Source of the DNA: a virus
Taxonomy: Duplodnaviria > Caudoviricetes
IMG/VR virus record: IMGVR_UViG_3300028293_000002
Location: 1 to 53,287 of that record
DNA: 53,287 nt
Strand: one strand, 5' to 3'
Made by a program: the position numbers and the translations under genes. The notes under the pieces were generated by a model. The model had not been told where the DNA came from, searched no databases, and saw nothing but the letters and a program-made list of their open reading frames with translations. Of the stretch, positions 32,960 through 36,321 are shown one piece after another (position 1 is the stretch's first letter; every line of letters begins with the position of its first letter).

Positions 32960-33406
32960 ATGAGCGCGGACAGCCTGACCCTGACCATACCCGTTGACGG
33001 CGACGAGCTGCGCCCGTCCGCGATGCAGCAGGCGAACATGACCGGGTTCCTGCGCGGCCGCAACGGCAAGACGGTGACGATCACGCTGGAGCGTCCTTAC
33101 GAAAAACGGACGGACGCCCAAAACAGATTTTATTGGGGCGTCGTGTTGACCATCATCGGGAACCACACCGGAAACTCCACGGAGGATCTGCATGAAGTAA
33201 TCAAAGCCAAATTCCTACCCCGGAAGTTCATCACGCTCGGCGGTCGAGAAATCGAAATCGACAAGTCGACCAAGAAGCTGTCAGTCACGGAATTCACTCA
33301 GTACCTGGAACAAGTCCAGGCATGGGCAGGCCAAGAACTCGGCATCGAATTTCCCGCACTCGAACAAACCACAACCCGCACCAGAACCAGACAGGTGACC
33401 CGATGA
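32960..33406 (+). CDS. NinB/Orf-like recombination protein
   Basis: KRTDAQNRFYWG...LHE..K..F...ST.KLSV.EF.QYLE. Confidence 0.75.
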   Translation: MSADSLTLTIPVDGDELRPSAMQQANMTGFLRGRNGKTVTITLERPYEKRTDAQNRFYWGVVLTIIGNHTGNSTEDLHEVIKAKFLPRKFITLGGREIEIDKSTKKLSVTEFTQYLEQVQAWAGQELGIEFPALEQTTTRTRTRQVTR

Positions 33407-33924
33407 AGATGAACCAAATGTTCCCGAGCAACTGGCTCGCGAAGGAAGACATCACGCACCCCATCCGCGCCACGATAAAGGCCGTGACGCAGGAAGAAAT
33501 CAAGGGGGAGAGCGGCAACGAAACAAAGAACATCCTGCACTTCAACGGCGACGTGAAGCAGATGATTCTGAACCGCACGAACGCGGAATTCCTCGTCGCG
33601 GCCTTCGGCGACGACTCCGACCACTGGCTCGGCAAGACGGTGGAAATCTACGTCGACCCGAACGTGATGTTCGGGGGCAAGCGCATCGGCGGCGTGCGGG
33701 TGCGTGCCGTCCAGCAGCAGACCGCCTGGACGTGGCCGCAAGCTATCGCCGAATGTGCCAAGGTCGGCATCAACGAGCAGCAGCTTAAGGATGCGCTCAA
33801 GCAAGCTGGGCTGTCCGCCTACAACGCCCAGCGCGACACGCCGACGGTGCAGCGGATCATTGACGAAGTGAGCGGGGTAGCGCTGGGCCCGCCGGGCGGC
33901 GACAACGGCGAGATTCCTTTCTGA
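33403..33924 (+). CDS. Putative phage ssDNA-binding protein
   Basis: FPSNWL..ED, ILN.TN, FG.D...W.GK, FGG....G.RVR; acidic tail ending EIPF like SSB. Confidence 0.65.
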   Translation: MKMNQMFPSNWLAKEDITHPIRATIKAVTQEEIKGESGNETKNILHFNGDVKQMILNRTNAEFLVAAFGDDSDHWLGKTVEIYVDPNVMFGGKRIGGVRVRAVQQQTAWTWPQAIAECAKVGINEQQLKDALKQAGLSAYNAQRDTPTVQRIIDEVSGVALGPPGGDNGEIPF

Positions 33925-33931
33925 CCTACCC

Positions 33932-33972
33932 CACCGGGCCGGTGACTTCCCACCACCGGCCCGGTGCCTTTC
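33932..33972 (+). terminator. 13-bp perfect hairpin after the SSB-like gene
   Basis: CACCGGGCCGGTG (33932-33944) / CACCGGCCCGGTG (33954-33966), followed by CCTTTC. Confidence 0.55.
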
Positions 33973-33983
33973 GAGGCCGTGCC

Positions 33984-34289
33984 GTGGACCTGTTCGACTA
34001 CATTTCCGAGCCGCTCCCGCCCTACGTTCAGGGCAGCGCCACGAGCCGCGAGTCCGCGGAGTCGATGGAACCTCGGTCGGCCACGCTACGGCGCAAGGTG
34101 CTGGACTACCTGCGCCGGTGCGCCGACGGGGCAACCGATGAGGAAATGCAGCGCTGGTGCAACATGCCGGCGAACACTCAGCGGCCTCGAAGGGTGGAGC
34201 TGGTCCGCGCCGGCCTGGTGGTCGACAGCGGCCGGACGCGGCAGACGGGGAGCGGTCGCAAGGCGGTGGTGTGGGTGGCGACTTCGTGA
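33984..34289 (+). CDS. Winged-helix DNA-binding protein
   Basis: TS..SA...VL..L...GATDEE...RPRRVELV..GLV.DSG..R.T.SGR.A.VW. Confidence 0.75.
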   Translation: MDLFDYISEPLPPYVQGSATSRESAESMEPRSATLRRKVLDYLRRCADGATDEEMQRWCNMPANTQRPRRVELVRAGLVVDSGRTRQTGSGRKAVVWVATS

Positions 34290-34297
34290 AACTGACC

Positions 34298-34326
34298 TTG
34301 ACGGTGAATTTCGGCAGGCGTAGAAA
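34298..34326 (+). promoter_or_regulatory. Promoter TTGACG-17-TAGAAA driving the structured leader and replication genes
   Basis: Hexamers with 17-bp spacer just upstream of the structured leader. Confidence 0.6.
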
Positions 34327-34395
34327 TGGTGTCAGCGGGAAACCTGTCGCTACAGGCCCTGCATCTCTTTGGCGCACGAGTCCTCAATGTCAACA

Positions 34396-34501
34396 CAACG
34401 AAAAACCGAGTCACTGCACGAATCGGATCGGTCCCTGAGCGTGCGCCGTCAGGTCTAAAGGCCGGTAGCGTCCGACCGTGCAGTGACTCGGTTTTTCGTT
34501 G
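34396..34501 (+). ncRNA. Putative c4/CI-like antisense RNA (long stem with bulges and apical loop)
   Basis: 25-bp perfect inverted repeat (34396-34420 / 34477-34501) enclosing further stems; loop and bulge complementary to flanking sites. Confidence 0.65.
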
Positions 34502-34540
34502 CAATCAAGGCGCACACAATGCGCCGCGAACGGCTGCGCT

Positions 34541-35260
34541 ATGGCCGGTGATTGGATAAAGCTTGAGCATGTCACCCCTGACAAGCCTGAAGTACATCTC
34601 ATCGGCGAGCAGATGGGCGTTGACCCAAACGCCGTACTTGGCGCCCTTATTCGCATCTGGATTTGGGCCGATCAGCAGACCATAGTCGGTAACGCTCCCA
34701 GCGTTACAGATTCGCTCATTGATCGCATCGCTTGCGCACGCGGGATCGCCAAGGCGATGCAAAAAGTTGGTTGGTTGCGCCTCACAGACGGTGGCGTGGA
34801 GTTCCCGAACTTCGACCGACACAACGGAAGTACTGCAAAAACAAGGGGTTTAACGCTCAGACGGGTCAACAAGGTCCGTAACGCATCGAGCGTTACAAAA
34901 GCGTTACCAGAGGTAGAGGTAGTGTGTTCTTCTCCGAAGAACACACTTAGAGAAGAGGTAGAGTGTGCAACGCACGAATGCCCGCCAGAATTTTTAGTTG
35001 AGCTCAAAAGACTGGCGAAGCTATTCGCGAAGCTTTATCCAGGTCCACCAGAACGGGCGCCGTTGCGTCCAGACGAAGTGGAAAAATGCTTCAAGCGATT
35101 CGAGAGTTGCGCTCTCAGCATCGCCGAAATTGAAGCCGAACTCGAGAAAAAAGGTCGCAAGCCGGAGTATCCGCGTGAGTTCGTCAGCCGTTTGCTGGGC
35201 GAGCCGAGTAACGCGAATGGCTTCAGCGCGAAACTGAAAGCGAGGCTTGAACGTGAGTGA
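34541..35260 (+). CDS. Phage replication initiator / replisome organiser (239 aa)
   Basis: MAGDWIK...PDKPEV...LG.L.RIW.WAD...VGWL...PNFDRHNG.TAK.R family pattern; internal iterons. Confidence 0.8.
   Translation: MAGDWIKLEHVTPDKPEVHLIGEQMGVDPNAVLGALIRIWIWADQQTIVGNAPSVTDSLIDRIACARGIAKAMQKVGWLRLTDGGVEFPNFDRHNGSTAKTRGLTLRRVNKVRNASSVTKALPEVEVVCSSPKNTLREEVECATHECPPEFLVELKRLAKLFAKLYPGPPERAPLRPDEVEKCFKRFESCALSIAEIEAELEKKGRKPEYPREFVSRLLGEPSNANGFSAKLKARLERE
34689..34907. repeat. GTAACGC/AGCGTTAC iterons, candidate replication origin
   Basis: GTAACGCT 34689, AGCGTTAC 34700, GTAACGC 34878, AGCGTTAC 34889 and 34900. Confidence 0.65.
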
Positions 35261-35915
35261 CTGGTTCCGTCAATGGGCCGACCGGCACGCCGCCATCTTC
35301 GGGCTGACCAGCCCGCAAGATTTGGAAATGTTCGCGGCTTGGCGAGGAGCCTTCGTCAGCGCTGGCTTCACGTTTTCGGAACTGAACGCGGCGACGGACT
35401 GGATGGTCAAGCAAAGCGCCCCAGAGTTCCGCAACGAACATCTGAAGATGATCCAAACATTCATCCGGCAACGGCGAGACGAGCAACGGCGATTCGAGCA
35501 GCAGACCGCGGCACCGATGGGGAAAAGCTACTGCTCGCTTTGCGGTGGAACGGGCATGGTCGTTGTTCCTCATCCGCGGTTCGTGATCGACGGCGAATGG
35601 ACGATGAATAGCAGCTACCAGCCGACGGCCGCGGTGTCTTGCTTGTGCGAAGTCGGCAAGCGCATCGAGCAAGCGCAGTTCAACAAAGAACGCAATCAGA
35701 AGCTGATGAGCCTTGGGCTTTACGAGACGCGGATACCTCGCGGGCTATGGACCGCGCTTTTGCACCACAAGAGCAAAGCGGCTGGCGCAAACAAGAAAGC
35801 CGAAGAGGCGACCAGGGCGGCGGACAAGCGGGGCAAGGTTAGGAAGCCTGCCGCGCTGGCGGAAACCGAAGAAGCACCGGCAATTACAGGCTCTGACGAC
35901 GATACGCCATTTTGA
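35253..35915 (+). CDS. Putative helicase-loader/replication accessory protein with Zn finger
   Basis: Follows the initiator; CSLCGGTG...CLC; acidic DDDTPF tail. Confidence 0.55.
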   Translation: MSDWFRQWADRHAAIFGLTSPQDLEMFAAWRGAFVSAGFTFSELNAATDWMVKQSAPEFRNEHLKMIQTFIRQRRDEQRRFEQQTAAPMGKSYCSLCGGTGMVVVPHPRFVIDGEWTMNSSYQPTAAVSCLCEVGKRIEQAQFNKERNQKLMSLGLYETRIPRGLWTALLHHKSKAAGANKKAEEATRAADKRGKVRKPAALAETEEAPAITGSDDDTPF

Positions 35916-35925
35916 GGGAGCCGAT

Positions 35926-36321
35926 GTGATTTACTTCATTCAGGAAAACGACACGGGCAACATCAAGATCGGCTACACGGCAAGCAAATGCGCCGATTCA
36001 AGACTCAAGGCGTTGCAGACTGGTAACCCGGAACGGCTGACGGTGCTGGCGACGTTCCAGGGAGACGAACGAGCCGAGCGGTGGATGCACGCCGAATTCT
36101 CTCAGTTCCGCGTGGCTGGTGAATGGTTCAGGCCAGCGGCTCCGCTGATCAAGTTCATCATCGACACCGTGAGAGAAGTTGCCGAATGCCGCAAAAACGT
36201 CGAAGGATCATGCGCGTTTTGCACCGAAACGATAACCGAGCAACAACTCGAAGACAGCGAACTCTACTGCCCTCACTGCTTCACGACGATCAAAGCGAAT
36301 CTCGTTAAACAAAAATACTGA
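35926..36321 (+). CDS. GIY-YIG (T5orf172/MUG113) nuclease-domain protein
   Basis: IYFIQ...IKIGYT...RLKALQTGNP...E...H..F...R..GEWF; C-terminal CxxC...CxxC. Confidence 0.88.
   Translation: MIYFIQENDTGNIKIGYTASKCADSRLKALQTGNPERLTVLATFQGDERAERWMHAEFSQFRVAGEWFRPAAPLIKFIIDTVREVAECRKNVEGSCAFCTETITEQQLEDSELYCPHCFTTIKANLVKQKY

Follow-up and report, generated by a model that had tools for sequence, protein, structure and literature searches.

A putative leader-RNA attenuator cassette upstream of the replication initiator gene of a tailed phage

How a tailed phage might set the supply of its own replication initiator is the question raised by the leader of one such gene in IMG/VR record IMGVR_UViG_3300028293_000002 (Duplodnaviria; Caudoviricetes), a complete virus record of 53,287 bp with direct terminal repeats and ~61% G+C, which was analyzed at its full length and is hereafter called the window. 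RNA control of initiator synthesis is textbook knowledge for plasmids, P4 and P1; to our knowledge, almost nothing comparable has been described for ordinary tailed phages outside the Proteobacteria. A preliminary description of the region had recognized a replication initiator gene (rep), an assignment borne out by the match to phrog_2509 (Table 1), and had read its leader as a c4/CI-like antisense RNA that gates rep through four hairpin-displayed targets. Here we favor, with about even confidence, the reading of positions 34298-34540 as a self-contained leader-RNA cassette, an attenuator and small-RNA unit in one, that would control read-through into rep.

The dominant feature of the leader is a long hairpin, HP3, whose arms (34396-34420 and 34477-34501) form a 25-nucleotide (nt) inverted repeat with 100% complementarity and 56 nt between them. 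The fold of positions 34390-34510 (121 nt) has a free energy of -66 kcal/mol and a z score of -8.74, with none of 200 shuffled sequences being as stable; the z score of the whole 231-nt leader is -5.69. The perfect 25-bp stem of the preliminary description is therefore exact, and the interior stems and apical loop that it placed inside were recovered in minimum free energy (MFE) folds as UCGGAU/GUCCGA, CGGUC/GGCCG and CCUGA/UCAGG, with the apical loop around GCGUGCGCCG; the bulge on the 3' side reads GUAGC (34465-69), not exactly AGCG as described. The outer 10 bp of the basal stem are A/U-rich and the inner 15 bp are GC-rich, and this GC-rich helix is flanked by GAAAAA and UUUUUCGUUG, a terminator-like anatomy that would suit an intrinsic, possibly bidirectional, terminator. 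The same place in a related locus, L005, carries ATTTTCTTTTG as the counterpart of the U-rich tail. HP3 ends 40 nt 5' of the initiator ATG and is present in a single copy in the phage genome. A blastn search with the leader against the phage collection gave no match, a scan for tRNA and tmRNA genes found none, and the DNA pattern of the shared stem arm occurs, among viral contigs, only in the L005 contig. The terminator-like character of HP3, like the wider family of covarying leader RNAs to which we come below, had been missed by the preliminary description.

A promoter-like site stands before the element, as had been claimed, and homologous promoters are found at the same place in relatives: L005 has CCTTGACG-17-TAGGGT at the matching relative position, the -35 context CCTTGACG is common to the window and L005, and a -10-like hexamer lies 6-10 nt 5' of the first RNA element in 14 relatives. 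The site in the window was missed by the consensus scan, having no T at position 6 of its -10 hexamer. Between the promoter and HP3, the leader carries two short sequences, box A (CGCTACAGGCC) and box B (GGCGCACG), with complements A' and B' in the HP3 interior. All four box sequences of the preliminary description, these two and the downstream GGCGCAC (34509-15) and CGCTA-TGGCC (34537-46), are present as read there, and the upstream CGCT is displayed in the loop of a CCTGT/ACAGG hairpin in our folds. The A:A' and B:B' pairs are collinear and in register, 31 nt facing 31 nt, and the long-range A/B:B'/A' duplex is calculated at -37.7 kcal/mol, approximately equal to the local structures that it would replace (-13.5, -18.8 and -2.6 kcal/mol). 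Allowing at most one mismatch, the 11-mer A' has two matches on the complementary strand in 53,287 nt, and one of these is box A, located 102 nt away.

To place this leader among its relatives, we used loci found by a search with the initiator N-terminal domain, comprising 24 viral loci, the best 80 of 477 metagenomic loci and 39 genomic loci. A leader design recurs among them, consisting of a near-consensus promoter, a short structured RNA and a U-tract hairpin ending 15-60 nt 5' of the ATG. In all four relatives that were scanned, exactly one plus-strand promoter (9-11 of 12 consensus positions) and one plus-strand intrinsic terminator bracket the leader RNA, which is predicted to span 92-113 nt from the -10 box to the hairpin end and stops 15-49 nt before the ATG; in several relatives, merely 15-20 nt separate the U-tract from the ATG. 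A consensus scan, the only search made for promoters on the minus strand, showed no promoter-like site there in the window leader or in these four relatives. The 130 loci with enough upstream sequence were then screened by a mechanical rule that asked for a T-rich tail, no fewer than 9 bp in the stem and a hairpin 3' end located 10-95 nt upstream of the ATG. It matched 27 loci, and in every one of them the hairpin interior and the leader upstream of it share a perfect complementary stretch of 7 nt or more; among 128 control regions in each case, there were 0 matches at +900 nt and 4 on the reverse strand. The window, L021, L030 and the L098 group escape the rule, their stems being bulged or including the T-run. 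Three of the 27 matches lie in bacterial-genome contigs (L110, L114 and L129), and L114, the only one of these tried on the covariance model introduced below, matches it.

The leaders fall into two classes. The first hairpin of the three-hairpin class presents box A as its apical loop (7-9 nt) and is followed by a short middle hairpin; A' is the loop (7-8 nt) of a 16-bp terminator. The middle hairpin is missing from the long-hairpin class (the window, L005, L021, L030, L060 and L064); box A is found directly at the predicted 5' end or no more than about 15 nt from it, and in all six members the 3' side of the longer hairpin's interior holds A', which forms a 9-12-bp helix with box A that contains one G-U pair each in L005, L021 and L030. 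The window fits this class, with a promoter and a 5' box followed by a long hairpin that ends within the class range of 16-60 nt from the ATG and holds A' on the 3' side. The uninterrupted stems measure 25 bp in the window, 23 bp in L005 and 27 bp in L021. A gapless comparison of the basal stems of the window and L005 over 23 pairs found 14 pairs to be identical, 8 to carry double changes and 1 to be broken, with no pair altered on a single side. Across 14 distinct leaders of both classes, the complementarity between hairpin interior and upstream leader gave a Fisher p = 4e-11.

Covariation was assessed using a covariance model, R1 (HP1, HP2 and the terminator HP3), which was built from one member of the three-hairpin class and then used to find more. 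At E <= 1 with default filters, R1 found 17 matches in 100 sources, 15 of them on the plus strand and 13 of these in rep leaders; the two plus-strand matches outside rep leaders are window positions 33832-33973 and L020. The best match of R1 in the window, at 33890-33973, is weak (17.8 bits) and corresponds to an ordinary terminator-like hairpin after the preceding gene, and no upstream complement to the loop of that hairpin was seen. The resulting alignment, A7, has 14 rows, 12 of them distinct, and retains a spurious minus-strand row (L082) and three rows with misaligned loop A (L061, L067 and L052), which lower the score of the kissing helix. Pairing holds in 94% of the cells of A7, and both partners vary at 34 of its 37 pairs; A7 reaches a covariation score of 0.748, whereas shuffles score 0.195 (0 of 500 attain the observed value) and slid controls do not exceed 0.14. 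In the A:A' loop-loop helix, 82% of cells pair and 5 of 7 pairs change on both sides, and because this helix is absent from R1, its covariation cannot have been fitted by the model. The counts leave out the MAFFT leader alignments (A2-A4), in which HP1 was not in structural register. The idea that the loops are hypervariable was rejected, as they are no more variable than the stems: L082 and L083 share 5 of 7 positions in each loop, 29 of 32 in the HP3 stem and 4 of 16 in the HP1 stem. Covariation, which the preliminary description had proposed to check among homologous leaders, is seen in the hairpins and the A:A' helix of the relatives; the complementarity of the hairpin interior to downstream targets is not conserved.

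The strand on which the structure operates can be judged from G-U pairs, of which 18 hairpins contain 37 on the plus strand compared with 13 on the minus strand. HP3 is more stable on the plus strand in 12 of the 18, strongly so in L005, L021 and L068 and by 14-23 kcal/mol in L005 and L021, and the G-U pairs in the A:A' helices of L005, L021 and L030 would read A-C on the opposite strand. Because of this bias in G-U pairs and stability, together with the promoter and the U-tract, we assign the structure to the sense RNA, not to the DNA or to an antisense transcript. In this respect the preliminary description was right that the element belongs to the RNA and to the sense strand of the initiator leader, and that a very stable hairpin holds a box complementary to an upstream box.

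The cassette also occurs apart from the initiator. In L151 (640-3035) and in L152, which has the same sequence on the minus strand, the L083 cassette is found unchanged, with its promoter, three hairpins, terminator and the first part of the spacer, after which both contigs continue into a non-homologous open reading frame (ORF) of 346 amino acids (aa) without a PHROG or Pfam function, which is not a MAGDW-type initiator and lies directly 5' of a DnaB-like helicase gene (phrog_19, E 1e-60). Since the same cassette precedes a non-homologous gene in these contigs, sequence comparison identifies it as a mosaic module that heads replication modules. The covarying cassette thus recurs before initiator-type genes in contigs from many sources and moves between non-homologous replication genes. 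As a separate observation, the loop pair GTACGAG/CTCGTAC is carried on two otherwise different three-hairpin scaffolds, that of L099 and that of the L036 group, so that one 'address' is found on different backbones.

From the anatomy, strand, promoter and terminator layout, covariation, position and linkage to replication genes read in these sequences, we propose the following course of events. A sigma-70-type promoter would start an RNA whose 5' part bears boxes A and B, and this RNA would end at the very stable, terminator-like HP3, whose interior bears B' and A'. Because the short distance from U-tract to ATG in several relatives leaves no room for a separate rep promoter, rep would be transcribed solely by read-through of HP3, so that the cassette would act as a transcription attenuator. 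Termination would leave a small RNA of ~170 nt, or of 100-115 nt in relatives, and read-through would yield the rep mRNA. The covarying A:A' pairing is the functional core of the cassette; it most likely sets the termination efficiency of HP3 or the lifetime of the short RNA. In addition, the short RNA may recognize nascent leaders of the same phage type, which would result in dosage-dependent control of initiator synthesis; P4 CI (PMC4825925) and the short and long isoforms of IsrK follow this logic. More tentatively, it is possible that the leaders make up a widespread, uncatalogued family of phage leader RNAs in which the covarying 7-12-bp 'address' lets the short RNA recognize nascent leaders of its own type and thereby tune read-through into the initiator gene.

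Several findings weigh against the attenuator reading. Transcription start, termination and read-through are predicted from the sequence, as is any action in trans. A look-up of sequencing runs listed no RNA run containing the sequence and two DNA runs of soil metagenomes, possibly its source. The -10 hexamer of the window promoter (TAGAAA) is poor; the terminator scan, which needs a loop of 3-8 nt, did not call HP3 in the window, where the U-run lies inside the stem, and L021 has no U-run. Taken alone, the upstream boxes of the window are only marginally complementary to the HP3 interior by shuffling (p = 0.08 for the longest perfect run and p = 0.07 for duplex energy). R1 does not find the window leader, which scores 5.3 bits (E 0.24) with filters off, and because of this score the window is linked to the three-hairpin class by architecture and through L005, not by detectable homology. 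By the mechanical rule, 103 of the 130 loci lack such a hairpin, and in many loci rep begins ~10 nt or less from the upstream ORF according to a rough ORF-gap estimate, a measure that G+C-rich DNA makes unreliable and that misses the window's own leader, returning -19 for the window itself; for these two reasons, the cassette is dispensable. Furthermore, A:A' touches the loop or the 3'-side interior of the terminator and not its 5' arm, leaving the effect of pairing on termination unexplained. Classical competition between a pre-emptor and the terminator was ruled out on the same ground, neither stem arm being the partner of A.

The c4/CI-type explanation put forward in the preliminary description holds that an antisense RNA is cut from the leader and uses its loop and bulge to act in trans on four targets, two on each side, the last covering the rep ATG, so that initiator translation or transcription is blocked, giving immunity or copy control. 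Its layout does resemble that of P4 in the part of the account available to us (PMC4825925), the complementarity to the upstream boxes is genuine and shared by relatives, matches of 7 nt and of 9 of 10 nt are present downstream in the window, and the rep start region is folded (-21.1 kcal/mol). Of the four proposed targets, however, it is the upstream complement that recurs in relatives, whereas the two downstream ones, including that over the ATG, do not rise above chance: the HP3 interior of the window does not match the downstream boxes above expectation (p = 0.18 for the longest perfect run and p = 0.34 for duplex energy), the 14 leaders show no trend (Fisher p = 0.57), box A does not pair with the translation start region (Fisher p about 1), and the downstream boxes are ordered B2 then A2, which is the wrong order for a collinear duplex with B'...A'. 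Targeting of the downstream region and the ATG by the HP3 interior was therefore ruled out as unsupported. The resemblance to c4/CI RNAs also stops short of family membership. Comparison with the Rfam C4 families, a check that had been suggested at the outset, gave no C4 match in the window or in 14 relatives: cmscan of positions 33500-35500 at E <= 10 returned three unrelated weak matches only, the whole window has 0 Rfam matches at gathering score, and none of the 14 related loci matches C4, ctRNA or another relevant family at E <= 1. Domain searches for a tyrosine integrase, a serine recombinase and a ParB domain found no match in the phage, in agreement with its earlier description as integrase-less, and so lysogenic immunity has no visible context (a repressor was not looked for). 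Overall, we regard this explanation as unlikely.

We think it similarly improbable that the element is passive punctuation, i.e. that a strong terminator, perhaps acting in both directions, insulates the replication module, with the short unit yielding a stable by-product RNA or activating an origin locally and A:A' only stabilizing the RNA fold or shielding the 5' end. The symmetry of A-tract, GC-stem and U-tract in the window hairpin would work both ways, the closeness of box A to the predicted 5' end in long-hairpin relatives fits 5'-end protection, candidate origin palindromes are located 150-350 nt downstream inside rep, and the cassette has no complementarity to the rep start region. However, a promoter lies upstream of the terminator, so the unit does not simply end an upstream operon and restart transcription, and the 15-20 nt between U-tract and ATG in several relatives would leave rep promoterless. 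The presence of a covarying long-range helix of 7-12 bp in many lineages and the constant place of the cassette before initiator-type genes suggest a specific role.

RNase III sites that separate neighboring RNAs are known from the lambda N leader and T7 early RNA, and uninterrupted stems as long as those of the window, L005 and L021 are long enough for the enzyme. An RNase III processing site, at which a duplex of at least 23 bp is cut to split the rep mRNA from upstream RNA and alter its stability or translation, nevertheless appears very unlikely, given that the stems of other members are merely 9-16 bp, so that stem length is not the conserved feature, and that the covarying A:A' pairing is left unexplained. 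Least probable of all is a DNA-level element (a cruciform, a single-strand initiation site or protein-binding inverted repeats of an origin or operator): the window stem is a perfect palindrome with equal stability on either strand (-64.9 and -62.2 kcal/mol) and GGCGCA(C) occurs 4 times within 155 nt, with GGCGCAC in alternating orientation, but the homologous stems of L005 and L021 keep their pairing through G-U on the plus strand only, a promoter and a U-tract terminator bracket the element in relatives, the 10-mer around GGCGCAC/B' is not enriched in the window (9 found, 23 expected), and the palindromes inside rep are better origin candidates.

Table 1. Features of the rep leader and the initiator gene in the window
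Feature	Position	Strand	Basis or remark
Promoter-like site, TTGACG-17 nt-TAGAAA	34298-34326	+	read from sequence; predicted RNA start ~34333
HP1, 5' hairpin: GCGGG/CCUGC + CCUGU/ACAGG, loop CGCU	34335-34362	+	MFE folds, -13.5 kcal/mol
Box A (CGCTACAGGCC), HP1 loop and 3' arm	34348-34358	+	10/11 complementary to A'
Box B (GGCGCACG)	34371-34378	+	8/8 complementary to apical loop B'
HP3, long hairpin	34396-34501	+	25-bp perfect basal stem, 56-nt structured interior
B', apical loop region GCGTGCGCCG	34439-34448	+	8/8 match to box B at 34440-47
A' (GGCCGGTAGCG), 3' strand of inner stem and bulge GUAGC	34460-34470	+	folds and complement scan
U-rich 3' stem end (TTTTTCGTTG), terminator-like tail	34492-34501	+	directly after 15-bp GC-rich stem
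Spacer and translation start region	34502-34555	+	hairpin GGCGCA/TGCGCC (34509-25); weak ATG hairpin closed by CAATCA/TGATTG; -21.1 kcal/mol
Replication initiation protein gene, MAGDWIKLEH...	34541-35260	+	phrog_2509, E 1.2e-48

The cassette stands in a phage genome whose minus-strand genes, among them the large terminase gene, span 1-28.4 kb and whose plus-strand genes cover ~28.9-46.8 kb, the latter block including a Gam-like gene, a NinB-like gene, rep and a SNF2-type helicase gene. The rep start codon is the ATG at 34541, and the MAGDW N-terminus is common to all initiator homologues; over the N-terminal 125 aa, the initiator shares 41-69% identity with 143 loci. Because the best matches to this domain in bacterial genomes are found in Pirellulaceae (61-65% identity), the host is likely a planctomycete. 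The genes flanking rep are not syntenic with those of related loci, the N-terminal domain of the initiator being the sole shared part.

Some further observations concern these neighbors. Just 5' of the promoter lies a small ORF (33942-34289; phrog_1123, unknown function) whose homologue beside rep in related loci amounts to one distant match, in L145. A terminator-like hairpin at 33932-33966 (13-bp perfect stem, 9-nt loop, tail CCTTTCG), directly after the stop of ORF 33403-33924, overlaps GTG 33942, the listed start of the phrog_1123 ORF, and because of this overlap the true start of that gene is probably further downstream. A 77-aa ORF across the leader (34326-34559) was considered as a gene and is treated as non-coding because it has no syntenic homologue in the loci and its best match (E 0.002) is on the wrong strand, inside a rep gene. 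On the other side of rep, ORF 35713-36321, which overlaps the end of the ORF after rep, matches the T5orf172/MUG113 (GIY-YIG-like) domain in Pfam (E 1e-9 to 2e-10) and may have entered the replication module as an insertion of the homing-endonuclease type.

Within rep itself, the palindrome TAACGC-N5-GCGTTA (17 bp) occurs twice, at 34689-34707 and 34878-34896, followed by a half-site at 34900-34907; both copies are in frame and code for (G/R)-N-A-x-S-V-T. Among 153 retrieved loci, the exact palindrome was found in 95, figures that take in some duplicates and the window itself; it typically lies 150 nt past the ATG and again 190-230 nt further on, in genes whose proteins are only ~40-69% identical. 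Because the third-codon positions are fixed, the palindrome appears to be under DNA-level constraint, and the copies are candidate initiator-binding or origin palindromes inside the initiator gene.

Among known systems, the closest layout is that of P4 CI RNA, which, in the part of PMC4825925 available to us, arises by processing of an untranslated leader and, by pairing with the upstream seqA and the downstream seqC, stops replication-gene expression through premature termination. With P4 CI and with P1/P7 c4, the cassette shares a sense untranslated leader after a promoter, a stem-held box complementary to an upstream box, replication functions downstream and, as predicted for the cassette, premature termination as the output. 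It differs from them in that it has no Rfam C4 match and no supported downstream target equivalent to seqC or a2b2, in that the RNA of the relatives ends at its own predicted intrinsic terminator and is not cut out, and in its host, which is probably a planctomycete and not a proteobacterium.

In the countertranscript-driven attenuation of pT181 and pIP501, as given in the accessible portion of PMC5703833, a terminator hairpin stands before the rep start and a pre-emptor is complementary to its 5' arm. To that extent the likeness covers a terminator-type hairpin just 5' of the initiator, an upstream leader complementary to part of the hairpin, and a presumed role in the control of initiator dosage. 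A terminator directly before rep is present in the relatives, and the window has the 15-bp GC stem followed by UUUUUCGUUG, which the scan did not call. In contrast to those plasmids, the complement in the cassette lies in the apical loop (three-hairpin class) or the 3'-side interior (the class of the window), so that there is no pre-emptor; the consensus scan found no opposite-strand promoter in the cassette, and the carrier is a phage, not a plasmid.

A third parallel is IsrK of Gifsy-1, which is classed with the C4-like RNAs and opens a ribosome-binding site, and for which the available part of PMC4825925 describes one promoter giving a short RNA that ends at a Rho-independent terminator and a read-through mRNA, the short form acting on the long one. 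As far as that outline goes, the cassette is alike in its one promoter, its predicted short terminated RNA and the read-through mRNA of the downstream gene. It differs in lacking detectable pairing with the start region, the conserved pairing being within the short RNA itself.

Loop-loop (kissing) antisense control is known from ColE1 RNAI/RNAII and R1 CopA/CopT, and IncI-alpha/IncB repZ uses an activator pseudoknot. The cassette recalls these systems in its 7-nt loops with variable core and conserved flanks, its loop-loop pairing and its covarying long-range pairing in a rep leader; it differs in that a single strand of one short transcript supplies both partners, one of them being a terminator loop.

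We found no description of such a rep-leader RNA in the open-access literature, and it is absent from Rfam 15. Since the cassette has no C4 match, supported downstream target, pre-emptor or antisense promoter, the best reading of the sequences is that it would work like P4 CI and the plasmid rep attenuators and belongs to neither family. If it is a true attenuator with a self-complementary address, it would supply a small, transferable part for controlling gene dosage, mark where phage replication modules begin and provide a testable case of a terminator loop serving as a recognition element. If the address reading holds, such a system could set replication dosage and possibly exclusion between related phages, and would represent a sense-strand, self-addressed counterpart of the antisense copy control of plasmids.

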